64,000 nt of DNA from Rotaria sordida (taxonomy: Eukaryota), in contig CAJNOH010000087.1 of NCBI GenBank assembly GCA_905250005.1, positions 208,393 to 272,392 of the forward strand, read 5' to 3'. The notes beneath the pieces are model-generated. The model was not told where the DNA came from. It searched no databases and saw only the letters and a program-made list of their open reading frames with translations. Positions 1 to 57,514 of the stretch are shown piece after piece; within the stretch, counting starts at the first letter, position 1; each line of letters starts with the position of its first letter. A program made the position numbers and the translations under genes.

Positions 1-1969
1 AAATGTGTCGAAGTTAGATCATCATTTTGTTTATCAATTATGAATTTAATGTTCACAAAGTATCTATGAACAGAATATATTCGCAATGCAATACCAAAGT
101 TTACCATTTACCAAGGTCATTTCATAAATAATTATCATTTGTTAATTTGAAAAATTCATTATAGAGAAGAAAAACGCGAAGGATTCAACAGAGTTTTAAT
201 TATTAAAATGTAGATATTAAAAAAAAAAACTTTTTTCTTACTATTAAAAATGTGTACTTCTAGTTCAAGTATTACTTATGAGAGGCTATTGATTTTCTAG
301 AAAAATATTGGTAAAAATTATAGTAATTGTAAGAAGTCTCATTACCAAGTAAAAAGTACATAAACTTCAATCCTTTTGCTTGACAAACCTGATCACAAGC
401 AGAACAACCTGAGGTCGATAGATCTTAATGTAAAAAGATTTTCGATGAAAACACTGACATTTTCCCTAGGATCCTAATTTTTCACTATTTGAATGTGTTA
501 ACATTCATTCTCTCATTAACAAATATAAGTTCGCATGTCTATATTGTGTCACCTATAGAGTACTCAATCTACTGTAATCTCAAGGCGAGAGGAAACCTTC
601 CATTGTCTAGGACTGTCTCAGCATGGACGCTTTCTTCATCGATGGCTGCGATCGTAAAATTTTTCAAGAAAATTTGATTAGAATAGACTATTCATTGCAA
701 ATAGTTCCAAGGTGAATAGTTAAAATTAGCTGGAGATATCGATCACTTTTCGACAATTAGCATCAACTTTCCTGTGAAGATTATCCAAATAATATTTCAT
801 AGATCAGGCAAATTAAAATTGTTTGACATGAAATTTTTATTGTCGATAGAGGCAGTGCTAAACTGTCGAATGAAAGATCTAACGTGATGAGATTTGTTTT
901 CGATGGTGGGATATTCTTGTCTGAAGAAAAAAAATCTATGTTGACCTTCTAGCTCGTCTGTTTGAAGACCGATCAGAGTTCAACATACTCTATTTGTAGT
1001 CAAACTATGAGACTAAAGGATTAAACTTCAAGTGCTTTTTACCTGATAGCGAGACTTTTTGCGACTAATGTATCATTACTTCAAAATGAAAGGAAAATGA
1101 AAAATTTTTAAAAGTTCAGTCAAAAAACAATTCTTAAACTTGTGTGATTGAGACTTAGTTTTACTATATTTCCTATGCATTGACTACCAATCATACGGAA
1201 ACGAAACAGTGATTGAATTGTAATGAAGTACGAGCTAGAATTCGACTGATTCATAATTTCTAAGTGAATTCAGTAATATTTTTTTAGTTAATATGTGTGG
1301 CTTACTTCCTATGACTTGATTACACAGTAGAAAACATATGGATTGCTTTTTCCTGTTAGATATTTTATAGAAAAGGAATGAAACTTTACATTTCGTACTA
1401 TCTGTATTGATGCATGAGTTAAATTTTATTTTATCCATTCTCTTTTAAAGTCTCGTTAACAGATGTCAACACATATTTTTCTATATACACTTTTAGCTGA
1501 AATTTTCAAATCTTTCTCATAATCTCCTTTATGAATTTATATGCATCTTGATAATTAGAATCTTAATTTGTAGAATCGAAAATTTTAATTGAATATCTTC
1601 CCATATCTTTTTCTAAAATATTAATATCACTACTACAATAAACTGTACATTACCTATAAAAAAAAAAGAGATGTTTCTCTTATTTCGTTCAAAAGTGAAT
1701 CATTAAAATTTTGAATAGCGATACAATATAATACTCTTTATGACTGAAATCATTCACATAGATTTATTTTGAAAGAAATGCTCACAAAGGAACATGTACA
1801 ACTTTTTGTATACATATGTATTAATGTATATATTTGATAGACGAAAAGATTTAAAAACTAATATTATAGATTTTTGAAAACAAGTTAGTTAACAATAGAA
1901 CAGTTAATATAAAAATATAATCAATTAGTAATACATAAAAAAGAGAAAAATAGGGAAATATATTTTAAA

Positions 1970-4516
1970 TTACATGATATCACAAATAGCTGATGTTGGA
2001 TTCAATCGATCGTCAGTTTTATATGGTATGTAGATTTTTATTTCTTCGAGAAAAGTAAGATAATCCTTCAAACTAAGTGTTATCGTCAGTTGAGATCTAG
2101 CAATGTCCTCCTTTAGTGAAGAAAACATAGCTTGTTGGCTTGCTTGGCACATATCATAAACTTTATGCAATAACCGACCGTTCATTCCTTCGAAAGCTGG
2201 TAGAAAAATACTAAGTTCTTTATCAAGAAGAAAAGATTTGACATGATCTTTAGTCCACATATCGATACAATGTGGATATTCCCTACAATAAAAAAAACCA
2301 ATTGATTATAGTTTCATGTGATCTAATGTTGAAGTTTTCCTATAATAAGTAGAAGTGTCAGTTAATGCATAGATAGGCAACAATGGATAAAAACATACTG
2401 GTAAAACATTTTACAAAGACATTTTAAAAAATTATTCTGGTAATGGGGACTCAGCCGATTGCATTGTACGTTTAATAAGTGCCAGTACAAAAATTTCTGA
2501 GATTTATTGAATAGAAATCTCGGTGTCAATAAATGTGAATCTGAAGAATCGTTTTGTTATATTTCAGTTGACACAAATGTTACAATGGTAATGCTTTTTT
2601 TTTCATTTTCTAAGCATTGCTATGTCCTTAAAGTGTTTGTCGATGAAAAGTATAAGATAAAGTAAATTTACTAATTAAATTTCCATAATCACTAAACATC
2701 ACTATCTATACAAGTTATCAAGAAGAGTACCTCATGTCTAGAATAACAACTTTCACCCTCAAAAAAAAAAAGACTTACACAACTGGACGCGGTTCTTTAT
2801 TATTTTCAACGCTTGAATTTGTTTTTGGTGTACTATCCATTAACGAACTTGAATTGTGATGGACTTGATTTTGTTCGGCAAGTATTAAGTTTGAATTATT
2901 CATTCGAAATAGTCCTATCTGTTTCTTAAGTTCTTGATAAGCTTTATCGAAACCAAGTTTCGGAAAATCAATATAGATCAATGCTGATGTTAACACTCCA
3001 AGCCATCCATCAGCTTTGTAGCTAGTTGTCATAACTAATGGAATAATATGACATCGACGTTTAACTGCATAGCTAGCTTCCATTTCACAGAAAGGACTCT
3101 GTTTGTAAGCATCAGACATACAAACAAGTACAAATTCTGCATTTTCAATAGCTTTAGCCATAGCATCAAATGTAGCACCATGCATCAATCGAGAATCAAT
3201 CCAAACACATAATTGATCTTTCTCGAGAGAACTTAAAATACGATGACACAGTGTTTTATCACTATGTGAGTAACTTATCATGATATCATATTGTTTTTTA
3301 TCAATCATTAATGAAGAAATTGAAGAAGGTTGTTGTTGTTGTTGTTGAACTGTTTTGATTATTGTTTCTGGTTCTTTTTCTAATTTCCATATTAATGCAG
3401 TAGCTATTAGTTGTAGATCTTGTTGTGATGATGAAGTCAATGTTCGAATATGATTCATGAAAGTATCATTGTTTTTGAGAATAGTCGCAAATTCTTTGTT
3501 AAAGACTAATGCAAGAAGAATTTCAAGTGCAGGAAGTTTTGCTTTGAGTGGATTGAATTGATCTTCGAGAGCACATCGAAGAAAAAGAGAATGACCTTTT
3601 TGTTTGATTAATTCTTCTCGAATTTGATCATGTTGTGTTAATACTAAAGAGAAAAAAAATAAATGATTAGTTTCTGAATGAGTGTATTTATAAAAAAATA
3701 TTTTCTTAACTATTATTATTCCTTGGAAGAAGAAGACAACTAAAACTAACCTTTAAGACTTCGAAGACTATTGTGTAGGCGACCTTCTGTACGAATACCT
3801 CCATCAATAACATTTTTAATAAAAGTAATAAAAACCGTAGCGATTCTACTCGAATTTTGAAGTTGTTTTATATCTGCTTCTGCCATAATAACAGCCAGAA
3901 TTCGATAGGCATGTAAATGAATTTCATCATCATTATTTGATTTTCGTATAAGTACATTGATAAGATCGACTAATTGAAGACTTTTAAGATAAATAACAAG
4001 TTCACTATCCAGAGTAAAATAGAAGAGAATTTGAAGAAGTTGTTGAACAAGAGGTATACCAGCTGGATCTATTGTTACTTGATTTGATTCATTGACAGAC
4101 AGTAGAATACGTTTGATAGTATCAGAGATATGTCGACATGCATCACGTGTGCCGTCACTAGTTATTACATCGCCAAGATCCATTCGAAATAATAAGTTAG
4201 TTAGATGTAGTAAGATATTTATCATAGCTGAATTCCATTTGATATATGGTGGCCGACCAGTATAATTCTCACTAAGCCAACTATTGAACCATTTAAGATG
4301 AGTACGTCGAATTCGTTCAATTATCTCTTGACGTCGATTACCTTCATACCAGGCAATTTGATTTGGATAATGTTCAAGTACGGTAAGTTCTTCATATGAA
4401 CGAGAATTGGACTGTTCTTTAGCAATTTTTTCGAACATTTGTGTATATAAAGGAGAACAAACTTGATCAACAGATCTAGCCAACATATCTGTAAACTCTG
4501 TGTAGACATGTGACAT
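1970..4516 (-). CDS. SARM-like protein, copy A (about 647 aa): an N-terminal alpha-helical domain followed by a TIR domain and a C-terminal SAM domain. Exons 3751..4516, 2779..3643 and 1970..2282.
   Basis: ORFs 3746..4516, 2775..3458 and 1970..2260 sit on one strand. Exon 1 ends AAAG|GTTAGT (phase 1). The acceptor is ..ttctctttag at 3644-3649. The exon-2 reading frame is open upstream of its first Met, reading LTQHDQIREEL... The TIR motif is YDIMISYSHSDKTLCHRI...FVLVCMSDAYKQSPFCEMEASYA. A GTAAGT donor overlaps the TAA stop at 2773-2778. A poly-Y plus AG acceptor sits at 2283-2284, in phase with a SAM-like exon (YPHCIDMWTKDHVKSFLLDKEL...GMNGRLL). No homology search was possible. Confidence 0.7.
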
Positions 4517-5989
4517 TGTTAATAACGTTTATTAATTAAAAAAAAAAGTGTTTTAACGTGATGAAAAAAAATATGGAGTAATGTATTTTAAAAGGACATA
4601 TATGAAGTTAGATTTCTTTTCTTTTTCTTGACGACAAAGTCTATATTAGCAACATACAGAAAAAAAAAAGAAAATATTTCAACCATAATGGAACTTTTAA
4701 TGTGTCTTTCATGTTGATTCTTTTATAGAAGTTGTGAAATGACGGCAAGAAAAAAACAACTTCCCTATCAACCTTCGTACAGCGATGAATATAGAACGTA
4801 TAGAAAATAAGTAACTTTTTCTCTACAAAACAGAACAACACATTTACTATAAACAGGAGTAGATAGTTGATTCGAGTTCGAATATAACTGAAGATAAAAA
4901 AAAAACAAAGCATAAGTTAATCATCACGCTTAGCCAAAAATAACATTTAACAGCTGAAGTTTAATAATCAAAGCTATGATTCTCGTCCTCAAAATACTGG
5001 ATATAAAGTTCGACTTTACTGTTCAGATAGACGAGCATTGGTGGTAGCTTTATGGATGGCGATCGCTGTTCTTACACCATTAGTCTCGATTGTAGATGTT
5101 TCAATTATGTTCTTATGGTAAAATATATCTAATACACTTCATTGAAGTTCATCAAATATCCAAAATACTATTTAGAATCATGACAAGATTCGATGAATGT
5201 CATCAATATGCTTTTTCTCAATTCTCAGATTGTCCATTCGAGATATTTCGATACAAAGACTTCAATCTCACTTTTCTGGTACCTCACACAATGTGATACC
5301 CTCGTGTCTCCTTTGTGTAGTATCATCATTAATTTTCCTTTTTTTTTGCAGCTGTTTTATTGATTTTCAAGTCACATTCAGTTTATATTATAATTCATCC
5401 CAAGTTTATTTTTCAGAAGTGATATTTTGACTCTTAAATCTTCATTTATATTCGAACTCGTATATAGACAATTCATGATAACCATAGTTGATTACAATGT
5501 TGCTTTGTTTTGCTTCTAACAATAGGACAATTCGAAATATATATATCAGATTTTATCTAATGACGTGAATGAATATATCAATCAAATAAGTCTATTTCTA
5601 AAATAAAAATGAAGCATTACTTTCTATCTGTAATCTGATTGATAATTTATGTTTTTTACTCATAAAGTGAGCTATTGTAATCATTCAATAAAACATTGAC
5701 TTAAGAGGTTGGGATTACTATTTAGAATAGTACATTAATTTCTCTTTCATTAAAGCAACATTACTGTCTTAAGTTAAGAGAAGCAAAATTATTATATATT
5801 ATCAATGTGAGCTAATTTAAATTTCACCGTTCGAATTTTCCAGTGGTGATAGCATATTAAATTCATCTATTCGATCATATTCATGTATATTAGAGTAAAT
5901 TCTCTCTATAACAATGAAAAAAATATCTAACGACAAAACCTTTCTTGGTGTCAAATCGCTTTTCTACCGAGACTATGTTCATTTAATGA

Positions 5990-6400
5990 GTGCTAGAATG
6001 GTTTAGTTTTCTGGATCTTCGTTCTTGAGATACCGAAATTTTACTGGGTTTTTCAACAAACCAATTGTCGTTTTCGTCAAGTCATGTGAAAAATCAACTT
6101 TCGAGTTTCAACTTCCAACGTTGTACGAATAAAGTTCCTAATGGGATTAATTTATTGTGTAAGTTTTTCTTTTACACATGATGGAGAATATTGAATGTCT
6201 CAGAATAGAACACACTAGAAAAGTTACAATTTGCTCATTAAACAAATGTCATTAAGAATCTTGTTCGTGTCAAGTTTGAAGTCAAAACTCGAAAGTTAAT
6301 TGTCTACATGGTCTGAGGAAGACCACAGCTTTTTGTTGAACAACCTAGTAGAATTGTGATATCTGAAGAACAAAGGCCTGAGAAATCAAACCATTCGAGA
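5990..6400. mobile_element. MITE-like palindromic element of about 410 bp with long imperfect inverted arms.
   Basis: Left arm 5990-6120 and right arm 6265-6400 are reverse complements at about 85% identity. Compare GAATGGTTTAGTTTTCTGG..AAATTTTACTGGGTTTTTCAACAAA with the reverse complement of AAACCATTCGAG. Inner arms match too (AACTTTCGAGTTTCAACTTC versus GAAGTCAAAACTCGAAAGTT). No ORF. Confidence 0.5.
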
Positions 6401-7197
6401 CTTTTCTATTATTCACTAGTAGTCATTAAATGAATATCATCTCGATCGATAAGTGATTTGACACTTCAAGAAGGTCTCTCGTTTATTCATGAATATTTTC
6501 AGATAATTGTAAATACATGTTTTCACATGAAAATGAAAAACTTATCTGCATAATTGTTAACTTATTATTCAAAATGACATCATATTGGACTTGTGTTTTA
6601 GTGTTAGTTTTCTTTTATTACATTTTTAAAAGATCAAATAAAATGATTGATGATGAAGAAATGTATCTCCAAATAGATTGAATAAAACAATTTTCCTGTG
6701 ATGAGCGATAGCAGCTACATCATGTTTCATATTTTAATCCCATCGAAATTGCTCTAACAACTTTTTTTGCCATAAAAACAATTATTTTTTCGATTCATAT
6801 GGAATTTTCATCTACCATATTCTTTGTAACTAGCTTAAAAAACTACTAACAGTCATTCAACATGGTCTTTCGTTATTTTCTTTCTTCAACGATTATAAAA
6901 TATACAAAATTTTATCACTCATAAAAACTTACGTAGTAGTTTTGTTATTCAAAACGTTTAAATATCGTATATGTTCCATTGAAAAGCTAAAAACAATTTA
7001 TAATTACATCAATTTGTTCTATTTCATCTGTTTTCCTAATATCAAGCGGTCACGCAAATTAGATATAGGTAGTGCGGTTCTAATTTTACATATACATAAA
7101 TGAACATGAGTTGAGTAACAATAAAAGAATGAATAAAATTAAAATCTGTCACTGATGTATGCAAAGATGAATGATTTTTTACAAGAAATTTCATAAG

Positions 7198-9473
7198 TCA
7201 GATAAGATTACAAACAGTTGATATTGGATTCAATGAATTGTTAGCTGTGAATGGTATATAGATTTTAATTTCTTCGAGAAAAGTAAGATAGTCTTTTAAA
7301 CTGAGTATTGCATGTTGAGATCTATTAACGTCTTCTTTCAATGATAAAAACATTCCTTGTTGATTGGCTTGACACATGAAATAAGCTTGATGTAGTAATT
7401 TTCCGTTCATTCCGTCTAGGATAGGTAGAAAAGCATCAAGTTCTTTGTCAAGAAGAAACGATTTAACATGATCTTCAGTCCACATATCAATACAATGTGG
7501 GTATTTCCTACAAAAAAAAACAAAAAAAAAAGTTATTTACGTTGGCATTATTCGATCTATAGTTTTCTTATAAATTATACTTTAGATTTTTGATGAAAAT
7601 TGGAAGATAAAATAAATTTACTAATTTAATTTCAAAAATCACTAAACATCATTATCTATACAAGTTATCAAGAAGAGTACCTCATGTCTAGAATAACAAC
7701 TTTCACTCTCAAAAAAAAAAAAGACTTACAAAACTGAACATGGTTCTTCGTTATTTTCTTCACTTGGAACTATTTCCGATGTATTATCCACCAACGAACT
7801 TGAATTATGATGGACTTCATCTTGTTCAGCAAATGTTGAACTTGAATTATCAATTCGAAATAGTTCAATCTGTTTCTTAAGTTCTTGATAAGCTTTATCG
7901 AAACCAAGTTTCGGAAAATCAATATAGATCAATGCTGATGTTAACACTCCAAGCCATCCATCAGCTTTGTATTTAGGTGTCATGACTAATGAAATAATAT
8001 GGCATTGACATTTAACTGCATAACTTGCTTCCATTTCACATAAAGGATTCTGTTTGTAAGCATCAGACATACAAACAAGTACAAATTCTGCATTTTCAAT
8101 AGCTTTAGCCATAGCATCAAATGTAGCACCATGCATCAATCGAGAATCAATCCAAACACATAATTGATCTTTCTCGAGAGAACTTAAAATACGATGACAC
8201 AGTGTTTTATCACTATGTGAGTAACTTATCATGATATCATATTGTTTTTTATCAATCATTAATGAAGAAATTGAAGAAGGTTGTTGTTGTTGTTGTTGTT
8301 GTTGAACTGTTTTGATTATTGTTTCTGGTTCTTTTTCTAATTTCCATATTAATGCAGTAGCTATTAGTTGTAGATCTTGTTGTAATGATGAAGTCAATGT
8401 TCGAATATGATTCATGAAAGTATCATTGTTTTTGAGAATAGTCGCAAATTCTTTGTGAAAGACTAATGCAAGAAGAATTTCAAGTGCAGGAAGTTTTGCT
8501 TTGAGTGGATTGAATTGATCTTCAAGAGCACATCGAAGAAAAAGAGAATGACCTTCTTGTTTGATTAATTCTTCTCGAATTTGATCATGTTGTGTTAATA
8601 CTAAAGAGAAAAAAAAATAAATGATGAACTTCTGAATGAGTGTATTTATAAAATATATTTTCTTAACTATTATTATTCCTTGGAAGAAGAAGAAAACTAA
8701 AACTAACCTTTAAGACTTCGAAGACTATTGTGTAAACGAGCTACATAAGGAACACCACCATCAATAGCTTTCTTAATAAAAGTGATAAAAACAATAGTAA
8801 TTCTATTTGAAATTTGCAGTTGTTTTATATCTGCTTCTGTCATAATAACAGCCAGAATTCGATAGGCTTGTAAATGAATTTCATCATCATTATTTGATTT
8901 TCGTATAAGTACATTCATAAGATCGATTAATTGAAGACTTTTAAGATAAATAACAAGTTTACTATCCAAAGTAAAATAGAAAAGAATCAAAAGAAGTTCT
9001 CGAACAAGAGGTAGAACAGCTGGATCAATGGTTGTTGGATTCGATTTACTAATGTTCAATAAAATACGTTTGATAGTATTAGTGATTTGTTGAAACGCAT
9101 GACGTGTATCATTGCTAGTAATAACATCATCGAGATCCATTCGAAAGAATAAGTTAGTTGCATGCAACATAATATCATTCATAACTGAACTCCATTTAAT
9201 ATATGGTGGTAAACCAGTATATTGCTTACTTAACCAACTATTGAACCATTTAAGATGAGTACGTCGAATTCGTTCAATTATCTCTTCGCGTTTATTTCCT
9301 TTATACCATGTGATCTCATTTGGATAATACATGAGTATAGTACGTTGTTCATTTGAAAGATAATGAGGCTCTTCTCTGGCTACTTTTTGAAACATTTGTG
9401 TATATAAAGAAGAACAAACTTGATCAACCGCTCGAGCAATTTCAACTGTAAACGACGTAGAATTTACAGTCAT
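7198..9473 (-). CDS. SARM-like protein, copy B, the tandem paralog of copy A (helical domain, TIR, SAM). Exons 8708..9473, 7730..8600 and 7198..7507.
   Basis: Exon and intron architecture matches copy A. The donor is AAAG|GTTAGT at 8702-8707. The TIR exon is nearly identical to copy A at nucleotide level. A GTAAGT donor overlaps the stop at 7724-7729. The acceptor before YPHCIDMWTEDHVKSFL (SAM) is present. A (CAA)n polyQ tract codes 7 Q here versus 5 in copy A. Confidence 0.7.
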
Positions 9474-10380
9474 GGTTAACGCACAGTTTATGTCTTAAGA
9501 ATTGTTAAAATGTAATGTTGCAACGTCAAAAAGAAAAAGAAAAAGAAAATTCTTATTTTTCCCTTTGACGTTAATGCCAAGACGATGAAATAGAAAATCG
9601 ACAGAAAGAAAATATGAACGTATTATGCTAGAAGAGTTTCAGTAAAGATAGCATGTTAAACCCATCTTCAACAGTGTGTGTCACGCAGAAATTATGAGAT
9701 GATGTTAAGAAAAAAAACCTACGTATTTCTTTCATTACATTGAGTAGCAAAAAGCGCATTACAAGAAAAACAAAACAAAATTTTTTTTTCTGCAAGATAA
9801 CACGATGAAATTAGTTGTACAACAATTTACTCGTAACTGAAGTTAGTAGTCAATGAAGATCTTTTGAAAAATGAAAACATAAAAAAAGAATTCTTTACTT
9901 TATCAAAGTTATATCATTTTTGTTCCCCAATGATGTACGTGACTACTTTAATCAAGTGCAAACTTAACAGTTTTTATCTGTCAAATGCAATAGCAATGCC
10001 AAGTTACTTTTTTCTTTTTCTTTTTCCATTATAACAGTTGAACAAAACTCATCGAAGGAGTAATTATTATCTAACCATCCATGAAACACCTACTATCTAC
10101 GCAACTTCCTGATGCTTCTACTATATTTAAAACATCATTTACTTCTATTAAAGTATTAAAATAAGACAATTTGTCACAAACATTTATTCTAGAACTTCAA
10201 TGAAGTATATTGATAATTGATGGAAAAATGTTTAATTAAAGACTACTAGAATATTTAATAATCTTAAATATGATTAGTTTGTCTGTTATTTGAGCTAGTT
10301 TTCATAATAGAAAGTGCAAATATGAGTAATATTCTGGACTTTATTTAAAAAAAAAAATAACAAAAAAAAAAAAAGATTTT

Positions 10381-13300
10381 TTAAAAACTTGTTGTATTTT
10401 CATCAATATTTTCATTAAAAATTTCTTTTAGAATTTTTTTTCGTTTAATCGATTCAATATATAATCGATTTTCTACTATATCAGGATGATAGGGTGGTAA
10501 TGTTTTTAAAAATTGTTCAGTTGATTTTTCTATACTTTCTATAGCTTCATCTAATTTTCCTTGACTTGAATAAACAAGTGATATATTAAAAAGTGTTATA
10601 CCAACTATTGAATGATTTTCTGGTAATGATATTGATGCAATTTCAAGACTTTTAAAATAACATTGTAATGCTTCTGAATATTGTTCTTCTCGATAATACA
10701 TTAAACCAATATTATTATAAAGTAATGCAAATGATGAATGTGTTAATGGTAAATATTCTTTTTGACATTCTAAAGCAAGTTTTAAATAATATAATGATTC
10801 ATTAGATCGACCAATTTTTAAATAAACATTTCCTAAAGTATAATAAGAAGAACCTAATGTACTAGAATTACGTGGTACAATACGTTCTTGAATTTCAATT
10901 GATTTTTTATAATTATCTATAGCTTCATTATATTTAAGTTGTGCAAGATATGCATCACCTGTATTATCATAAGTTAATGCAAGTTCACCATCATGTGATT
11001 CAGTTACTTGTTCAAGAATTTTGAAAGTACGTTGAAATGATTGAATAGCTTCAGAATATTTTTCTTGTCTTAAAAAAAGAATACCTATATTATTTGTATA
11101 ATTACTAATTGAAAGTAAATCTGGAGTATTTGTACGAAGTTGTATATTAAGTGCTTTTTGATAATATTCATGAGATTTTTCAAAATTATCTAAACGTAAA
11201 TACATTCCAGCTATATTACCATAAAGTGTAGTTAATTCTAATGTATTTGGTGAAATAAAACGAAGAAATGCATCTAATGAAAGATGATATAATTCAACAG
11301 CACGTTTATAATCATCTTGATTACGATGTGATGTTGCAAGTGCAAGACAACTAGCAGCTATTGAAGTTTGAATATTTACATCTGCTTTTAAAGTTTCATC
11401 ATTAAACATTGTTTCAACTATTTGTTCAGCTAATATGTGTTGATTCATTACAATCATTAATTTTATTAAGGTAATCAATTGAGAAAAACTTTTGATTTCC
11501 GTTCGTTTAGTCTCAAGTATTTGTTGAATTTTTTGTTGATCTTCATATTTAACTAATGTTAAATGAATATAAGGAATTTGATTTTCATTAATATTTTCTT
11601 TTTCAACTTTAATTAAACGTCCCATAATACCCATATTTAATAAAACATCATTATTATTATCAATTAAATATCGACGTGAACTTATATTAGCACATTTAAA
11701 ATGTGCTGGTATATCAATACGAATAAGAATTGGTATATAATCTTCAGTTAAAGTTGGAATTTCTTTAGCAATACGAATAGCTCGTAATTGATCTGTTGAA
11801 CCAAATAAAAATTGAGGAAATACAATGAGATCATCATTTAAAAGATTTTTTTGTAAATTATCAAGATCATCTCTTTGCATTGTTTGTCCAAGATAAACTA
11901 TTATTGAATCTTTTACGGATTCATTTTCTATTTGTTGAAATAAATCTTGAATAAATAAACGAAGTTTATATAAAATATCAGGTTCAGGAGTACGAAGAGC
12001 TTTATTTAACATCTAAAAATAAATGATTTGTTTGTTTTTTTTTTTTCATTTTTAACTTTAATTATTTATAAATAAATAAATTTACTTTTGATAAAAAACA
12101 TTGTCTTGAAAACCAATAAATTGCTTGATTTTTTTGATAATTTTTTTCAAATTCATCAATTATTTTTAATTCTTCATCATTACCATCATATTCTTGACGT
12201 GAAAAATTAATTAATTCTTGTAAATTATTTCTATTTTCATTTTTATCAAGAATTATTTCACTTAATAATTGACAATATATATAAGTTGTAGGAAGTGTAG
12301 TTGAATTTGATGACATATTTATATACATTACTAAATCACGTTTTATTTTATGTATATCTTTTGATATTTGTTCATATATATCATTGAAATTTTTATATAA
12401 ACCTTGAACTTTTAATTGTTTAAATGATGAATAATTAATTTCATTATTATTATCAGATAAAATATAAATAGTAAATATTTGTTGAAGTCCTTCAATTCTT
12501 GGAAGAATTGAATTAACAAATAAATTTGAAAGAATAAAGATAATTTTTTCATTGAATACACCATTTATAAATGCAACACAATCATCAATATCATTGAAAA
12601 TTTTTAAGAAATTAATAAGACTACGAAATTGTTTTATTATTGATTCATCAGGATATGAAGAATGTAAATAAATAAGGGTAAAATATTCAACATTACCTTT
12701 TTCTCGAGGTGCACTATCGAATAAGACTTTTGGACTTTCGATTTGTTGTTCTAATTTTAAAAAGAAAAAGAAATAATAGATATATAATAAAACATAGTGG
12801 AATTTTCTATTGCAGAGAAAGTAAGTTCAATCGATTTGTAAGAAGAACATATTACATTTTATGAAACACGATCTAAAAGGAGTTTTGAAGTATAACAGGA
12901 CAAAAATATGCATCCTCCTTCCCCAGCTGTGGCAGATGCTAGTCAAAGACTATCATAAATCGTGGCTAGAGATATGCTGAATCAAGTTTTTTTTAGCAGC
13001 GGTATCGATCTAGAGAAAACTATTCCAAAATTTATTCGTATGAAAACTAAAATAATTCATTAGCACTTGATTTTTTTATTTATTTAAGCTGCGACTAATA
13101 CTTTTTTGAATCTTCTCTCTTGAATATGAAAAAAAATATATTCCAAAATAGATAAAATAAGACAATTTTTCACCGATTAACAAGAGTAGCTCATTCAATT
13201 ATGTTAATTGAATCAAAGTATTTTAAAACGCTTATTGAGTTATCATGCTGTCTTTTATTGCTAGTGAAATTTGATCTGAATAACAAATCGTGATTTCACT

Positions 13301-30566: not shown

Positions 30567-31592
30567 TTATTCCTTTGATTCATTTTTTTCTCGTTGTGCT
30601 TCTAATTTCTTTGTAACAACATCTACAGGATATTTTAATGCTAATTGTCGAATATCATAACTAAATTCTTCAAAAGTTTCACCCCATAAACGAGCTTCTT
30701 CTGGTGTATAATTATAAAAACCATTACCATTTAAAATACCTTTCCCACCGGCTTTAACAATATCATCGATGAGTTTCGGTACTTCAATTCCATTATGAAG
30801 TGTAGGAAATAAATCTTTCATAACACTATGATAAGCTGGAACACCAGTGAGATCCATCCATCGAAAGCATCCAACTAATGTCATCCAATAACCAGTATTA
30901 TTACGACATGCTCGATCAACATCATCAACAGAAGCATATCCGTTTTCGACTAAATAAAAAGCTTCTCGATATAAAGCATACATGAGACGATTAGTAATAA
31001 AACCACGAATATCTTTTCGTACAAGTGTGGGTTCTTTAGCCCAATGATGTGAAAGTTGATATAACCATTCAGCTTTTTTAGGATCACTAGTGTCACCACA
31101 AATAATTTCTAAAAATCGTGTTGTATGAGATGGTACACCCCAATGTAAACCGAAAAAACGACTTGGTATACGAGTTTCTTGTTGAAGAAGACTAATTGGA
31201 ATGGCTGATGTATTACTTGTTATAATCGTATGATCAGTTACAATATTTTCAATATTTTTATATACTTGTCTTTTAATTGTAATATCTTCAAGAGTACATT
31301 CAATAACTAATAAAGTATCTTTGAGGCACGTATAATCTTCGGTAATAGTTAGATTTTTTAAGTAATAGGTTGGTTGTTCTAAACAAATTTTTTGTTCAAA
31401 TGATTGAAGGAGATGTTCATGAATACGAGTTTCACCAGTTTCAAGATCGATTGGAAGTGGTGCAATTGCTACAACTGGATGACCAGCCATTAAAAGACAA
31501 GTAGTAATACTACTGCCCATAAGACCTAAACCAACTACACCGACTGGTATTTGTGCAGGAACGATAGCTGAAATATTTTCTTTAGTATCCAT
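30567..31592 (-). CDS. Single-exon protein of the 3-hydroxyacyl-CoA dehydrogenase family (NAD-binding N domain plus 3HCDH C domain). The likely start is the Met at 31592; the listed ORF extends to 31703.
   Basis: A Rossmann motif VGVVGLGLMGSSI is present. The C-terminal region RGFITNRLMYALYREAFYLVENGYASVDDVDRA...MDLTGV is typical of HCDH, lambda-crystallin or 3-hydroxybutyryl-CoA dehydrogenase enzymes. The reading frame has no introns. Confidence 0.7.
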   Translation of the reverse strand: MDTKENISAIVPAQIPVGVVGLGLMGSSITTCLLMAGHPVVAIAPLPIDLETGETRIHEHLLQSFEQKICLEQPTYYLKNLTITEDYTCLKDTLLVIECTLEDITIKRQVYKNIENIVTDHTIITSNTSAIPISLLQQETRIPSRFFGLHWGVPSHTTRFLEIICGDTSDPKKAEWLYQLSHHWAKEPTLVRKDIRGFITNRLMYALYREAFYLVENGYASVDDVDRACRNNTGYWMTLVGCFRWMDLTGVPAYHSVMKDLFPTLHNGIEVPKLIDDIVKAGGKGILNGNGFYNYTPEEARLWGETFEEFSYDIRQLALKYPVDVVTKKLEAQREKNESKE

Positions 31593-32095
31593 TATTATCC
31601 GTATGTTACTCTTTAAAAAGATTGATTTTTTATGTGACTTATGCAATACGATAGGGTAACTCAAAAGCGAGATAATGACACTTTCGAACACATAAAATAT
31701 CACATGATTTTATAATTTGTAGACGAAAGAATATTTACAGTAGATGGTGTTTGGTTGTCAAATGCGATAAAGAAATGAAACACACACAAAACAGAACAAA
31801 AAAACCTCGTGGCCACTTGTTACAATGAATAACTAGATAAGAAACAAGCCGAGATACAAAATATTTCCCTTTGTTTGTTCATTATTTTATATACAATGTT
31901 AGCGTCAACGGATGTCGCATTATGACGCTAACTTATGTCCAGTGTATTACACATACATATAGGTTTTTTTTCTTTTTCTTTCCTGTCATATATGCATATG
32001 TTCTATTGATCATCATGAGATCATGATAATCTATTTTATATTGCGTCATTCTAGTTTTTCTATTACGTTTGTTTCATTTTTTTTCTTTTCATATT

Positions 32096-33253: not shown

Positions 33254-34156
33254 TTAAGAGCTAGGAATGGGTTCAAAGATTAATGATAGTTGTGTACCAT
33301 CACGATAAAATCCACCATTTTGTAATTCATTTTGAGAAGTATTAACTGCATGTAGAATAGAATCAGCACCTATTTCAGGAGAACGAGCATTAGATGCATT
33401 TTGAGTCATATCAGTAGCACAAAATCCTGGAGACACTGATACAATGAGTAGATTTTTACTAGTAGACCATTCACGTGCTTCTATTTGAGTAAGTGCATTT
33501 AATGCTGCTTTAGAAATACTATAGATTAGACTGTTCGTTTTATTATGATATCCTAAGTCTTTAAGAGTATTTGTTTCAATAGCTGCAATAAAATCTTCAA
33601 CTAATTGATCAAGTTCTTTTATTGTCAATGTTGATGATGTATATTTATCTTGAAGAATTGCAGAAGATTCATGCAATGCTATGGGGCCCAATTGACTAGA
33701 AACATTGATTATACGTCCATTCTTTCTAATCATTGAAAGCAATTGTTCATTGAGTAATTTGATACTATAATAATTTACGGCAAATGTTTTTCGAGCTGCA
33801 TCAACAGTAAAATCTTTTAAAAGAATTCCAGCATTATTAATAACTATATCCAATTGTCCGCCATATTTTTCTTTGATTTCATTAATTGCTTGATTGATAC
33901 TTTCTATTGATGACATATCCAACTGAAGAATATGAACATTGGATGGAGAGCCAAGTTGTTCAAATGCATCTTGACCACGTTTTAAATCTCGACTACCAAG
34001 AAGAATAACAGTATTATTCGATGATGATTCGTTCAAAAGTTTTTTTACAACATGAAAACCAATGCCTTTGTTAGCACCAGTGACAAGAATTACACATTGT
34101 TGTTTTGTTGCTAACATGTTTGTAGAAGAACAACTAGTAATAATTGATAAGAACAA
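33254..34156 (-). CDS. Single-exon short-chain dehydrogenase/reductase (SDR, carbonyl-reductase-like).
   Basis: A TGxxxGxG motif reads VTGANKGIGFHV. NNAG is present. The catalytic YxxxK reads YSISKAAL. The likely start is Met-14 (MLATKQQ..) near 34117. Confidence 0.8.
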   Translation of the reverse strand: MFLSIITSCSSTNMLATKQQCVILVTGANKGIGFHVVKKLLNESSSNNTVILLGSRDLKRGQDAFEQLGSPSNVHILQLDMSSIESINQAINEIKEKYGGQLDIVINNAGILLKDFTVDAARKTFAVNYYSIKLLNEQLLSMIRKNGRIINVSSQLGPIALHESSAILQDKYTSSTLTIKELDQLVEDFIAAIETNTLKDLGYHNKTNSLIYSISKAALNALTQIEAREWSTSKNLLIVSVSPGFCATDMTQNASNARSPEIGADSILHAVNTSQNELQNGGFYRDGTQLSLIFEPIPSS

Positions 34157-41300: not shown

Positions 41301-43513
41301 TTCATCTTCGAGCCCTTAAAACTTTCATTGACGATTTTGGTAAAAAACGTTTGAGTGGAGAAGAATGGCTTGCAACGCATATTGATACGGAAACACACAT
41401 CCTCAGTATATATGAAGAACTTGTTGCCGTTGTCGATGCAATCACACTCAATTCACGACAGTATTGTGTTATTCTCGATCCCGTTATCGATAGTAAACCA
41501 CAACTTGGAAGAAAGGTCGATATTTTATTAAGAGATAAATATAAGAAACTATGATTTAATTATTTTATTTAGAAAATGATCTTTGGTGAAATATCATTCT
41601 TTCTCCAACCGGGCGAAAAACTCTTGACAGGCATTCAAAATATTTTTATTTTGGATGAAGACGAAGGTGTTATTGTCAAATGTAATGAAACATTCGAAGA
41701 TGAACAAGCAAAGAAAATACGTACTCCGGGTGATCTATGGATGATTCGAGGACCAACGTAAGTTACTTTTTCTTTATTAAATAACATTTTGAATATGTAG
41801 CTATTTTATTTGAATTCTTAGTGAATATATTCCACCTACTCAAGTAGAAGTTGTCACTCGACGAAAGGCAATTCCATTAGATGAAAATGAAGGCATCTAT
41901 ATTCGTAATATCAAAAGTGGTCGTGTTCGAGCAGTCATCGGTGAAACTTACATGTTAACACAAGATGAAGAACTTTGGAATAAAGAATTATCCGAACAAA
42001 TCGAATATTTGCTTACGCGTGATCCATTAACCGAACGCTATTCTCTTATGCGTGAATCGGCTTCAGCCAAAAATGCATCGACAGCTACTGCCTTTAATAG
42101 TCAATCAAACAGTTCGAAATCAATTACTACCAAACGTGACAAATGGAAATTGATCACATATCGTGTTCCACATAATGCAGCCGTTCAAATCTATGATTAC
42201 AAACTAAAGAAAGCTCGCATTGTCTTCGGTCCAGAACTTGTCATGCTTGAACCTGATGAACATTTTAGTCTGATTTCTCTAAGTGGTGGCATACCCAAAT
42301 GTCCTAATCAAGTTAACTCCCTTTGTTTACTACTCGGTCCAAATTTCTTTACTGATATCATCGTCATTGAGACGGCCGATCATGCTCGTCTTTCCCTTCA
42401 ACTTGCTTATAGTAAGTCAAAAACACAGCAAAAACATTCAAAAATATACGTGATTGATTATTCTTTATTTTCCAGACTGGCACTTTGAAGTGAAAGACAT
42501 AAATGATAAGAGAGAAGCGGCTAAACTCTTTTCAGTGCCTGATTTTGTCGGGGATACATGCAAAGCTATTGCTTCACGTATTCGTGGTGCTGTAGCTGGT
42601 ACTCAATTTGATGATTTCCATAGGAACTCCGCTCACATCATTCGTGAATCTGTATTCGGTCTTGATGCAAATCAGTGTGTACGTGATCAAATTGTCTTTC
42701 CACAAAATAATCTTGTCATTACATCGATCGACATTCAAAGTGTTGAACCTGTCGATCAACGTACGCGTGATGCGCTACACAAGAGTGTGCAACTGGCCAT
42801 TGAGGTATGATATTGAATTGTTCGTCTCAATCGAAATGCAAGCAACACTTTCTATTTTAGATAACGACGAATTCACAAGAAGCTGCTGCTAAACATGAAG
42901 CTTCACGTCGCGAACAAGAAGCTAGAGGTTTTTTAGAACGACAACGTATCAAAAATGAAGCTGAAGCCGAACAGATTCGACAACTACTACTCGAATCACA
43001 AGCTCTATCGGCGGCAATCGAATTAACTGGTCAAACCAAAGCAGAAGCTATAAGTCGTGCTGAATCGAAGCGTATTGAAGGCGAAACAGCCGTTTACCAA
43101 GGTATATACTTTGTTACATTTAAATAATGAATACCTGAGCTTTTTTTTCTTGGTCCATTGCAGCGCGTCGTAAAGCTGAAGCAACCAAAATCGAAGCTGA
43201 AGCTGAATTGGCCCGTTTAAAATTAGTACGTGAAGCTGAAATCAAGTTTTTACGCGAACAAAACGAACTAGAAATTAAGAAAAAAGCCGAGTTGTCTCGA
43301 ATTGAAACTGAAAAATTCAAATTACAAGTCGAATCAATCGGTACTTCGACTATTCAAAGTATTGCTACATCAGGTCCCGAAACTCAAGTCAAACTTTTGC
43401 AAGCACTCGGAATACAATCGATGCTCGTCACCGATGGCAAAAATCCGATCAATCTCATGGACTTTGGACAAGGTCTACTCGGGAGTTTAACAGCTCGTCA
43501 TGTAATCAACTAA
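38310..43513 (+). CDS. MVP: Major vault protein, about 876 aa, 9 exons. Exon 3 is interrupted by a 2.1-kb foldback element.
   Basis: Colinear match to the MVP sequence I know: [25 protein letters not shown]..; [80 protein letters not shown]..; [14 protein letters not shown]; and the C-terminal coiled coil ..[28 protein letters not shown]. Exons: 38310..38503, 38563..38731, 38781..38961 joined to 41070..41194, 41249..41515 (weak G|GTCGAT donor), 41573..41757, 41822..42411, 42476..42804, 42861..43101 and 43164..43513. Confidence 0.9.
38962..41067. mobile_element. Non-autonomous long-inverted-repeat (foldback) element, Tc1/mariner-like, inserted in the MVP coding exon. It has TA target-site duplications and CAGT termini.
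   Basis: Arms of about 1 kb are near-perfect reverse complements. Identical small ORFs 39119..39325(+)/40704..40910(-) and 39550..39744(+)/40285..40479(-) arise from these arms. The termini are CAGTCAATGTCCCTAATAACAACAC...GTGTTATTATTAGGGACATTGACTG. TA occurs at 38960-61 and 41068-69. A subterminal motif TCCCTAATAACAACAC is repeated at least 4 times per arm. Removing the element while keeping one TA joins ..KATI to [14 protein letters not shown].. in frame, which aligns gap-free with MVP ..[18 protein letters not shown].. Confidence 0.8.
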
Positions 43514-52566: not shown

Positions 52567-53667
52567 ATGTCTTCGAAACAAATTAATATTTTCTTGACTG
52601 GTGTAACGGGTTATATTGGAGGCTCCATACTGACTGGCCTCCTTCACCATCCAAATGTTTCAAACTTCAAAATAACTGCTCTGATTCGTGGTGATGAAAG
52701 TAGAGTGAAAAAGATTGCATCGCTCGGTGTTACTACTCTCATTGGTACAAATGATTCACATGATATTATCGAGAAAGCAGCAAGTGAATCGCATGTCGTT
52801 ATTCATACGTCCAATTCGGCTGATGATATTCCGTCAACCAGATCGATTATTAGTGGTTTGAATAAACGAACTGAGACGACAGGAAAACCAGCTATTTATA
52901 TTCATACTAGTGGTACTGCTGTTATTTCTGAAGATGTTCGTGGTAAGAAAGGCTCGAATACAGTCTACAGCGATCTTGATCCTGACAAGATCAATAGTGT
53001 ATCCGACGAACAAGCACATCGAAATGTCGATCTCTTAATAATCAACGCAGCACAAGCCAATCCTCTATTGAAGAGTGTCATCGTTATTCCTCCAGCCATC
53101 CATGGCATTGGTACAGGTCTGTTTCATCGCTATTCTGAAACACTTGCAGCATTAATTCGCGCTGCCTTAAAACGTGACAAGGTAGAAATGATTGGGCCAG
53201 GTGAATCGAAGTGGAGCTACAGTCATATCGACGATTCAGTTGATGCTTACATTATTCTTCTTGATCAACTTCTTGCTGTCTATGGACCTAATGCCAAACC
53301 TGATGCGAAGCCCAGTTCATATCTAACTACAGGACGTGAAGGCTACTATTTCACTGAAAATGGACAAGTTTCAGGACAAGAAGTGTCCGAAAAAATTGGT
53401 GAAACTCTTTACAAGAAAGGTGTTCTCAAATCACCTGAAGTTACGAGCTTTCCCGACGATGAAATAGAAAGTGCTTTATTTGGTCCTTTCAGTTGGGTTT
53501 TGGGATGTCAGTCGAATTCCAAAGCCGAGAGATTGGCCAAATTAGGATGGAAACCTCATCGACCCAATATGCTCGACTGTGTTGAAGAACAAGTGGATGC
53601 TTTGCTCAATGATGCAAAGAATGGAGACTCTTGGAATAGGCGTCTTTTCGGACAAGATATCTCATAA
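52567..53667 (+). CDS. Single-exon NAD(P)-binding oxidoreductase of the NmrA-like or atypical SDR/epimerase family, 366 aa.
   Basis: The N-terminal Rossmann motif reads IFLTGVTGYIGGSIL. There is a 366-aa uninterrupted frame. The GC content is moderately higher than that of neighbouring genes. Confidence 0.55.
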   Translation: MSSKQINIFLTGVTGYIGGSILTGLLHHPNVSNFKITALIRGDESRVKKIASLGVTTLIGTNDSHDIIEKAASESHVVIHTSNSADDIPSTRSIISGLNKRTETTGKPAIYIHTSGTAVISEDVRGKKGSNTVYSDLDPDKINSVSDEQAHRNVDLLIINAAQANPLLKSVIVIPPAIHGIGTGLFHRYSETLAALIRAALKRDKVEMIGPGESKWSYSHIDDSVDAYIILLDQLLAVYGPNAKPDAKPSSYLTTGREGYYFTENGQVSGQEVSEKIGETLYKKGVLKSPEVTSFPDDEIESALFGPFSWVLGCQSNSKAERLAKLGWKPHRPNMLDCVEEQVDALLNDAKNGDSWNRRLFGQDIS

Positions 53668-56656: not shown

Positions 56657-57514
56657 ATGTGGCGGTTAAAGTCAAAATACGTGTACAATTGTATCATCTG
56701 CGAGATTATTGTCGTTACTACCATATTTTCAAATTATTACTTCTGCAAGACTTCATCGATACTGCCAAGGCTGAAAAAACATGATCCAACACTCGTAGCG
56801 TATATTATTACAGTTCCTGGTTATGATCAACGAGTAGCAAGTGTTGTGGATCTTTTTAAAAAATACGCTCATATGAATCTTCGACGTTTCGAGGGCATTC
56901 GATTTTCTCATCAACTTCATGTAAAAAACAACTCTCTGACACTCGGAGAACAGAGTCTACGAGCGACAATGATAATGTTCTACAGCATGATGGTTCGTGA
57001 AAATCATGAAAAAGTATTCGTGTTTGAAGATGATGCGATTCCACATCGTAATTTCAAAGCACTGCTCAGGGAATTGCCTCATCGTTGTGTTGAAGCCGAT
57101 GTTCTATTATTAGGAGCCACTATATGGCATACAAAGCATACAGATTGGCCCAGTGGAGCGTGCTTCGATGCTAGCCGTGCAACATTTGGTGCATTTGCTC
57201 TCTTGCTTAAAAGAGTATCCTACCGTCCTATTCTTCAATGGTTACAAGCTAATACGTCGGAACCGTATGATCATGTTTATCGTCACTTACAACAAAAGAA
57301 ACTCTCTGTTCGAGTAGCATTTCCTCCTTTTCTAGTTATTCCAGATATTTCGCATCCATCTTTAATCAATAATAATCGAACTGCTATCCAATTCGATGTT
57401 ATCAAACGAGCTGAAGTGCATCTTTGGCACTTGAAAGATTATCCAATGGTTCAAATACCGACTCAGATTATGAAGACCAATGTATCGAAGAGGCCAGACT
57501 TTCCAGGAAGATAG
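56657..57514 (+). CDS. Single-exon type II membrane glycosyltransferase, GT25-like, 285 aa.
   Basis: An N-terminal hydrophobic anchor reads CIICEIIVVTTIF. The central region includes YIITVPGYDQRVASVVDLFKK..RRFEGI...VFVFEDDAIPHRNF, a DxD-like EDD motif typical of the Glyco_transf_25 family. The reading frame is uninterrupted. Confidence 0.5.
   Translation: MWRLKSKYVYNCIICEIIVVTTIFSNYYFCKTSSILPRLKKHDPTLVAYIITVPGYDQRVASVVDLFKKYAHMNLRRFEGIRFSHQLHVKNNSLTLGEQSLRATMIMFYSMMVRENHEKVFVFEDDAIPHRNFKALLRELPHRCVEADVLLLGATIWHTKHTDWPSGACFDASRATFGAFALLLKRVSYRPILQWLQANTSEPYDHVYRHLQQKKLSVRVAFPPFLVIPDISHPSLINNNRTAIQFDVIKRAEVHLWHLKDYPMVQIPTQIMKTNVSKRPDFPGR

Follow-up and report, generated by a model that had tools for sequence, protein, structure and literature searches.

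In mammals, the tandem paralogs TLR1 and TLR6 group by ortholog in their N-terminal parts, whereas a region of about 300 amino acids that includes most of the TIR domain groups by species, a pattern of independent and recurrent gene conversion in nine species (Kruithof et al. 2007, PMC2077338). Here we describe a tandem pair of TIR genes, referred to as gene A and gene B, in a stretch of 64,000 nucleotides from the bdelloid rotifer Rotaria sordida (contig CAJNOH010000087.1), which we call the window and to whose positions all coordinates refer unless another locus is named. We are confident that the centre of the two genes has been homogenised by recurrent interlocus gene conversion, that is, by concerted evolution between old tandem duplicates. 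The comparisons of haplotypes and species presented below show that this conversion ran in both directions in R. sordida and independently in each of three species. As in the mammalian pair, part of the repeat domain adjacent to the TIR domain of these tandem paralogs was co-converted with it. Unlike TLR1 and TLR6, which are transmembrane proteins of the order LRR–TM (transmembrane)–TIR, the products of genes A and B are predicted to be cytosolic with the order ARM–TIR–SAM. Furthermore, the tract occupies a central position in the gene and is bordered by diverged sequence at either end, in R. sordida it includes an intron, its limits vary between closely related species, and its host is an asexual bdelloid rotifer.

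Gene conversion is well documented in bdelloids, mainly between alleles or homologous copies (e.g. PMC5916493, PMC7749112). These precedents share with the A/B pair the homology-directed copying between similar sequences, but the A/B case concerns interlocus conversion between tandem paralogs and a mosaic at the scale of protein domains. The genomes of Adineta alone encode 120-133 TIR proteins of all kinds (bioRxiv 10.1101/2021.09.04.458992).

The domain composition of the A and B proteins recalls that of SARM1/TIR-1, which has the order ARM–SAM–SAM–TIR with two SAM domains, whereas the A and B proteins have the order ARM–TIR–linker–SAM with a single SAM domain and a CaaX-like C-terminus. A phmmer search with the A and B proteins against PDB gave no match to SARM1, and only a profile of the C-terminal domain touched the SARM1 SAM domain (E = 0.15). 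The closest sequence matches of the TIR domains were instead bacterial Cat1 and plant RPS4. By domain composition, the family can thus be described as a putative permuted relative of SARM1 without SARM1 sequence orthology, and an initial description of the genes as SARM-like holds for the composition, not for the order. In the parts of the literature that deal with them, the invertebrate families called ARM-TIR or ecTIR-DC are presented as uncharacterised and as found widely among invertebrates but not in vertebrates (PMC9334734; PMC6321704, citing Gerdol et al. 2017). As far as these accounts describe the class, it combines an ARM fold with a TIR domain and matches the layout of the A and B proteins, which differ from it by diverged N-termini without a Pfam ARM match and by an added, bdelloid CaaX-like end.

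Mosaic identity of the tandem gene pair

The window is AT-rich, with a GC content of about 0.30. Open reading frames (ORFs) were listed for positions 1-11000, which revealed two sets of three ORFs on the minus strand, joined in frame by GT-AG introns with the canonical junctions AAAG|GTTAGT…TTTAG| and GT|GTAAGT…TTGTAG|. The resulting gene models are as follows.

1970-4516, minus strand: gene A, 647 amino acids, span 2547 nt
4516-3751, 3643-2779 and 2282-1970, minus strand: exons 1, 2 and 3 of gene A
3750-3644 (107 nt) and 2778-2283 (496 nt), minus strand: introns 1 and 2 of gene A
7198-9473, minus strand: gene B, 648 amino acids, span 2276 nt
9473-8708, 8600-7730 and 7507-7198, minus strand: exons 1, 2 and 3 of gene B
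8707-8601 (107 nt) and 7729-7508 (222 nt), minus strand: introns 1 and 2 of gene B

The two genes are arranged head-to-tail in one orientation, with 4957 nt from start to start and a gap of 2681 nt between them, and a self-BLAST of the window identified no additional close copy of either. In database searches, they were found to belong to bdelloid rotifers, with R. sordida proteins annotated as "TIR domain-containing" or "unnamed" as the top matches. The gene A protein was 98% identical to R. sordida protein P0001, and gene B corresponds to protein P0003 (about 98%). Intact reading frames, together with ratios of nonsynonymous to synonymous divergence (omega) of 0.16-0.34 between orthologs, mark both genes as evidently functional. 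The adjoining gene at 10381-12012 (minus strand), with further exons upstream, encodes a large protein rich in TPR_12 repeats, which is about 1143 amino acids long in other assemblies.

The sequences of the two genes were globally aligned and scored in sliding windows, and the synonymous divergence (dS) between them was estimated per segment with the Nei-Gojobori method. The segments, all on the minus strand and given in gene A coordinates from the upstream to the downstream end, are listed below.

Upstream of the ATG: identity below 55%
Exon 1 from the ATG, apart from the two segments that follow: identity 67-87%; dS 0.61 for amino acids 1-171
3860-4003 (B 8817-8960), secondary patch in exon 1: identity 92-97%, dS 0.033
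End of exon 1: identity 81-84%, dS 0.53
3098-3778 (B 8049-8735), core tract: dS 0.017
Intron 1, 107 nt in both copies: identity 94-95%
3098-3640: identity 98-100%; dS 0.000 for the first half of the TIR domain, which lies inside the core
Second half of the TIR domain: identity 89-96%, dS 0.13
Linker: identity 76-87%, dS 0.48
2641-2778 (B 7591-7729), first ~140 nt of intron 2: identity 92-94%, B type
Most of intron 2 (496 versus 222 nt): unalignable
Exon 3: identity 70-86%, dS 0.88
3330-3347 (B 8281-8304), polyQ microsatellite: (CAA)6 in A, (CAA)8 in B

In gene A, the core begins 28 nt before the end of exon 1, continues through intron 1 and takes in the first 546 nt of exon 2; at the protein level, the exon 2 part runs from the end of the ARM-like domain over the polyQ tract to the middle of the TIR domain. 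About half of the tract thus encodes the end of the helical domain rather than the TIR domain, and its boundary at 3097/3098 falls in the middle of the TIR domain, six codons upstream of a catalytic-type glutamate. At the protein level, the identity between A and B was 70.6% for exon 1 (65.5% for amino acids 1-171), 89.6% for exon 2 (97% for the helical part, 92.6% for the TIR domain and 55% for the linker) and 70.6% for exon 3. The longest run without any difference was 329 nt (3098-3426), a length that was reached in none of 10000 shuffles of the alignment columns, in which the maximum was 97. For silent sites only, i.e. third codon positions and introns, a run of 158 columns was observed, again in none of 10000 shuffles (maximum 87). 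Chance is therefore excluded as the source of the identical run.

The synonymous divergence falls about 35-fold in the core (0.017 versus 0.6). Since this drop is accompanied by homogenised intron sequences, selection at the protein level can be excluded as its cause. Omega values between the paralogs A and B were 0.30-0.35. The N-terminal domains diverge under purifying selection, as shown by the omega of 0.16-0.34 between orthologs. There was no gross signal of positive selection on the N-terminal domain in the pairwise omega values, a coarse level of analysis at which site models were not run.

An earlier note on this DNA, made from the sequence alone, had described a head-to-tail pair of genes about 5 kb apart with a mosaic of identities, and both the arrangement, now resolved into two intact genes of three exons, and the non-uniform divergence were borne out by the sliding windows. 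Several of its figures needed revision. The value of about 65% for the N-terminal exon applies to amino acids 1-171 rather than to the whole exon, the 75% given for the SAM exon is close to but above the 70.6% measured, and the microsatellite, read as (CAA)5 versus (CAA)7, is one repeat longer in each copy. The segments 2880-3640 and 7830-8600, considered nearly identical, share 96.6% of their nucleotides, with 20 mismatches and one 6-nt gap, and only the core is truly near-identical. The patches at 3860-4003 in exon 1 and 2641-2778 in intron 2 had not been listed. Finally, the proposed confinement of conversion to the TIR exon does not hold in the window, where the tract crosses intron 1 and stops in mid-TIR, although it fits the two related species Rotaria sp. 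Silwood1 and Silwood2 described below.

Haplotypes of R. sordida and related species

To place these patterns within the species, three R. sordida haplotypes, namely the window and the loci L001 and L002, were compared in an alignment of six sequences that contained A and B from each. The 3 haplotypes were 98.3-98.6% identical to each other over 14 kb and had the same layout, and therefore represent three differing haplotypes or strains with a reproducible structure. The gene order in L001 and L002 was TPR gene, B, A and a gene for an Ariadne-type E3; the window shows the TPR gene, B and A, and the Ariadne gene lies beyond its end. Across the 677 columns of the core, only 2 differences between A and B were fixed in all three haplotypes and 5 polymorphisms were shared between the paralogs, while another 24 sites were polymorphic in one paralog with one allele equal to the other paralog. 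The corresponding numbers for the 5' part of exon 1 were 108 fixed differences and no shared polymorphism. The length of the (CAA)n tract also varied among the three haplotypes (6, 5 and 8 repeats in A; 8, 5 and 5 in B).

One tract copied from B to A was private to the window haplotype in the six-sequence alignment.

3102-3273 (minimum) and 3098-3499 (maximum), minus strand: private B-to-A tract

At eight linked sites (3249-3273 and 3102), gene A has the B state in the window, whereas its counterparts in L001 and L002 have the A state. The proteins concur, with SHSDKTLCH in the window A protein and in B versus SHNDKELCH in P0001. The 100% identity of the first half of the TIR domain in the window is explained by this private tract.

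We further compared loci from Rotaria sp. Silwood2 (L003, L005), Rotaria sp. Silwood1 (L004, L006) and R. socialis (L007, L008), and a dispersed R. sordida paralog, here called paralog C (L009), using p-distances (p) per segment and neighbor-joining trees with bootstrap support. In the tree inferred from the 5' part of exon 1, the sequences grouped by ortholog (bootstrap 1.0 for the A clade and 1.0 for the B clade), and the distance between A and B was 0.23 versus 0.10-0.13 between orthologs. In the tree inferred from the 5' 546 nt of exon 2, they instead grouped by species, with a bootstrap value of 1.0 for each of R. sordida, Silwood2 and Silwood1. Distances in the core were 0.004-0.028 between A and B within a species and 0.09-0.11 between species, the latter reflecting an ordinary pace of evolution. 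Exon 3 again grouped by type (0.96 and 1.0), with the A type recovered in R. sordida and Silwood2 and the B type in all three species. The exon 1 patch at 3860-4003 followed the core, with distances of 0.035-0.06 between A and B versus 0.09-0.13 between orthologs. Together, the segment distances and the incongruent trees place the duplication before the species and the homogenisation of the centre independently in each of them.

The extent of the homogenised region differs between the species. Both halves of exon 2 were nearly identical between A and B in Silwood1 and Silwood2 (p = 0.008 and 0.025 for the 3' part), and the 3' part has re-diverged in R. sordida (0.125-0.144). In Silwood1, the identity leaps from about 50% to 97-100% exactly at the junction of intron 1 and exon 2, and remains at 93-100% until the A contig stops within exon 2. 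Intron 1 is of unequal length in the Silwood1 and Silwood2 copies (about 275 versus about 455 nt); in gene A of R. sordida, the intron 1 of 107 nt and the start of intron 2 are of the B type and were copied in. This 107-nt B-type intron and the (CAA)n tract were found only in R. sordida, in both paralogs, and (CAA)n was absent from the Silwood1 and Silwood2 orthologs. Within exon 1, the dS between A and B was 0.61-0.76 for amino acids 1-171 in all three species and 0.19-0.30 for amino acids 172-255, which is roughly equal to the divergence between species; dS between orthologs across species was 0.25-0.46 for exon 1. This gradient indicates that the frequency of conversion drops with distance from exon 2.

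The order TPR gene, TIR pair and Ariadne/IBR E3 gene is kept in R. sordida and Silwood1, and a TPR gene, a TIR gene and an Ariadne gene also follow each other in contigs from Silwood2 and R. socialis. In Silwood2, a 777-kb contig (L003 10001-12759) has one TIR gene in this interval, in which exon 1 is of the B type and exon 3 of the A type, and a contig of 6480 nt (L005 1-6480) has the reciprocal combination of an A-type exon 1 and a B-type exon 3. L005 is as long as one period of the tandem repeat, which measures 6423 nt in Silwood1, and mapping on that species places its two ends next to each other. A real unequal crossover was considered as the origin of these reciprocal chimeras and judged less likely because a loop contig is simpler: L003 and L005 probably derive from a collapsed tandem repeat. 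If the two combinations were real, unequal crossing-over would reshuffle the modules of these receptors. In R. socialis, the syntenic interval between the TPR and Ariadne genes has only one, fast-evolving TIR gene (L007 8847-11667). Its exon 1 leans to B and its exon 3 to A, with a long branch and weak affinities, and the gene may represent either the ancestral single-copy state or a fusion of B and A.

It was also noted that exon 3 of gene B (7198-7507) groups with exon 3 of paralog C (L009 12144-12446) with a bootstrap value of 1.0, which is not the case for exon 1. The distance between B and paralog C in this exon was 0.155, versus 0.226 between B and A, and L009 is located in another genomic context. 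This grouping points to mosaicism of an older date or to exchange among dispersed members of the family.

Protein architecture and neighbouring genes

The A and B proteins each start with an ARM-like helical domain, which is followed by a TIR domain, a linker and a single SAM-fold domain, and finish with a CaaX-like end. The corresponding features are given below; the gathering cutoff of Pfam TIR_2 is 28 bits.

2895-3290, minus strand: TIR domain of A, amino acids 374-505, Pfam TIR_2 E = 1e-19, 71.7 bits
7846-8241, minus strand: TIR domain of B, amino acids 376-507, Pfam TIR_2 E = 9e-17, 62.1 bits
3078-3080, minus strand: catalytic-type glutamate E444 of A, just outside the recent tract (B 8029-8031)
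2036-2266, minus strand: SAM-fold domain of A, amino acids 550-626 (B 7264-7491)
1973-1984, minus strand: CaaX-like box CDIM of A (B CNLI at 7201-7212)

With A and B alone as queries, Pfam identified only the TIR domain, with no SAM or ARM match at E <= 1, and the assignment of these two domains therefore required family profiles and structure prediction. An AlphaFold2 (AF2) model of A, based on 35 homologs, had a predicted local distance difference test (pLDDT) score of 82 and a predicted template modeling (pTM) score of 0.70. The model consists of helical repeats (amino acids 1-359), the TIR domain with an alpha/beta fold (374-505), a disordered linker (507-543) and a five-helix domain (550-626). 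A Foldseek search against PDB supported an ARM fold, with C. elegans TIR-1 and human SARM1 as the top matches, followed by importin-alpha, APC and designed ARM proteins, at a probability of 1.0, and some homologs have the ARM Pfam domains PF00514, PF03224 or PF24768. The predicted five-helix domain fits the SAM fold. A C-terminal family profile matched the SAM domains of Liprin-beta (9e-7), ETV6 (1e-4) and SARM1 (0.15), and Pfam SAM_1, SAM_2, SAM_3 or PNT were matched by a few of 17 family members, but not by A and B alone.

In a family-wide alignment, conservation is highest in the TIR domain and the C-terminal ARM repeats. Glu444 in SPFCEMEASYAV was invariant among 35 family members and aligns with the glutamate of the C-x-x-E motif in the TIR domains of plant RPS4 and bacterial Cat1, which we take to be the catalytic residue of these NADases. 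Distant homologs with the same ARM–TIR–SAM-like layout were identified in Mytilus (a mussel), Styela (a tunicate), a coral and a sea urchin. A CaaX-like box, with cysteine at position -4 and an aliphatic residue at -2, was present in 25 of the 29 bdelloid family members examined (CDIM, CNLI and mostly CNLM) and absent from the mollusc, tunicate, coral and urchin homologs examined, which suggests that it may represent a prenyl membrane anchor specific to bdelloids. By analogy with SARM1, the function would comprise SAM-mediated oligomerisation, ARM-mediated regulation, and cleavage of NAD+ or signalling by the TIR domain at a membrane. The A and B proteins may accordingly be envisaged as membrane-anchored, SAM-oligomerising TIR enzymes or adaptors regulated by their ARM repeats.

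A third TIR gene was identified at 59717-62416 (minus strand) in the window. It is a single ORF of 900 amino acids with a helical N-terminus, a TIR_2 match at amino acids 522-645 (E = 2e-16), two SAM-like "W..e.V..W" motifs after the TIR domain and the C-terminus CNIL. Since its TIR domain shares only 24% identity with that of A, it represents a distant member of the helical–TIR–SAM–CaaX superfamily. Further ORFs or exons of the window are as follows.

30570-31703, minus strand: 3-hydroxyacyl-CoA dehydrogenase
33257-34156, minus strand: short-chain dehydrogenase
41952-42485, plus strand: major vault protein repeats
52567-53664, plus strand: intronless ORF, NAD-dependent epimerase/NmrA, a family typical of bacteria
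56657-57511, plus strand: intronless ORF, glycosyltransferase family 25 of lipopolysaccharide (LPS) biosynthesis, a family typical of bacteria

The two intronless ORFs are located in a stretch with a somewhat higher GC content (0.35-0.36) and may have been acquired horizontally; a search of both against NCBIfam returned nothing decisive.

Alternative explanations and evolution of the pair

The earlier note had left the choice between conversion and strong purifying selection on the TIR module, and had proposed per-domain dN/dS and other haplotypes as checks. That purifying selection alone preserved the central block, without any conversion, would agree with the low dN of this region and with the high conservation of the TIR domain and the C-terminal ARM repeats throughout the family. 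However, the synonymous sites are about 35-fold less diverged in the core (0.017 versus 0.6, with 0.53-0.88 in the flanks), intron 1 and part of intron 2 are homogenised as well, and the block differs by 9-11% between species but by less than 3% between the paralogs within each species. The species-wise clustering and the silent-site data thus refute this explanation, to which we attach a practically negligible probability, and of the two options in the earlier note only conversion stands. Its observation that the N-terminal domains diverge was correct, with the qualification that they do so under purifying selection (omega 0.16-0.34) and with no positive selection at the coarse level examined.

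An artefact of assembly, in which the repeat was collapsed or two more different copies were cross-polished, might be suspected from the Silwood1 contigs that end inside exon 2, and from the Silwood2 assembly with its reciprocal chimeras and a contig of exactly one repeat period. Yet the two-copy layout and the tract boundaries are shared by three independent R. sordida assemblies, each with its own private differences, and copy-specific fixed differences persist inside the core. The 2 additional R. sordida assemblies, with the same layout and with polymorphisms shared between the paralogs, speak against a collapse. Moreover, copies that were 20% divergent would not confuse an assembler, so that the confusion itself argues for a real near-identity of the cores. 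We consider an artefact extremely unlikely. A different history would combine a young centre with foreign ends. In this case, the genes would have been duplicated recently, or gone through cycles of unequal crossing-over, and exon 1, exon 3 or both would then have been replaced from dispersed paralogs by exon shuffling, with no homogenisation of the centre. The affinity of the B exon 3 to that of paralog C, not seen for exon 1, and the B1–A3 and A1–B3 combinations in Silwood2 are in line with such a history. On the other side, the exon 1 types are orthologous in all three species, as are the exon 3 types where recovered, with ordinary divergence between species, and the Silwood2 chimeras are most simply the loop contig of a collapsed tandem repeat. 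With flanks older than the species and a centre younger than each of them, the same replacements would have been needed three times, and we regard this history as very improbable.

Some observations nevertheless weigh against recurrent conversion or limit what can be concluded about it. Assemblers of short reads can mis-assign variants between copies inside a near-identical repeat of ~680 nt, and because of such mis-phasing less weight can be placed on the shared polymorphisms, the apparent reciprocal swaps (e.g. at 3668-3671) and the private tract than on the low divergence as such; the private B-to-A tract could in fact be mis-phased reads inside the repeat. The contigs of Silwood1 and Silwood2 break or switch inside exon 2, and those of Silwood1 stop in its homogenised sequence (L004 17562-17786; L006 4898-5671). 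Furthermore, the GC content at third codon positions (GC3) of A and B was examined for a signature of GC-biased conversion, which was not found; the trend was opposite, in that the converted centre had values of 0.12-0.15 (0.15 in the core) and the ends outside the conversion had higher values of 0.18-0.26.

As we read the data, the A/B duplication predates the split of R. sordida, Rotaria sp. Silwood1 and Silwood2, and non-allelic conversion has since repeatedly overwritten the middle of one copy with the other, most frequently in exon 2 and decaying outward. As an outcome, the gene centre evolves in concert, whereas exon 3 and the 5' portion of exon 1 follow separate orthologous lineages. 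The extent of the tract may be restricted by the strong divergence of the flanks and by large indels in the introns, which would prevent the heteroduplex from extending. The process may also be self-reinforcing, in that the most conserved segment, the ARM end and the TIR domain, stays similar enough for further recombination. The limit may be reinforced by selection against homogenising the N-terminal and SAM ends, which have diverged, and selection to keep the TIR/ARM interface in common may play a part, in line with what has been proposed for TLR1/TLR6 (PMC2077338).

A more far-reaching proposal is that A and B act together as NADase sensors of the ARM–TIR–SAM type anchored in the membrane, and have to co-assemble or bind a common partner via the TIR domain and the adjacent ARM repeats. 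Selection would then favour conversion events by which this interface stays identical, different inputs or assemblies would be set by the N-terminal ARM repeats and by the SAM/CaaX ends, the core would serve as a recombination cassette, and the B1–A3 and A1–B3 genes in Silwood2 would be real products of unequal crossing-over. We consider this proposal unlikely; if it were true, an asexual animal would have gained a means to reshuffle the modules of its immune receptors.

As a case of recurrent interlocus conversion, the A/B pair is a clear but ordinary example of a process known from mammalian TLR1/TLR6, of modest surprise, and it overturns no existing idea. In practical terms, the near-identical exon breaks or mis-joins contigs and shortens gene models in public Rotaria assemblies; the deposited models P0001, P0007, P0009 and P0010 stop after exon 2, without the SAM exon 3. 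The pair also sets out an architecture, ARM–TIR–SAM–CaaX, for a large unnamed family of bdelloid TIR proteins. It provides a very clean instance of concerted evolution at the scale of domains, replicated in three species, and indicates that gene conversion in bdelloids acts between loci on tandem paralogs, beyond the homologous copies, with tract limits that shift between sister species.

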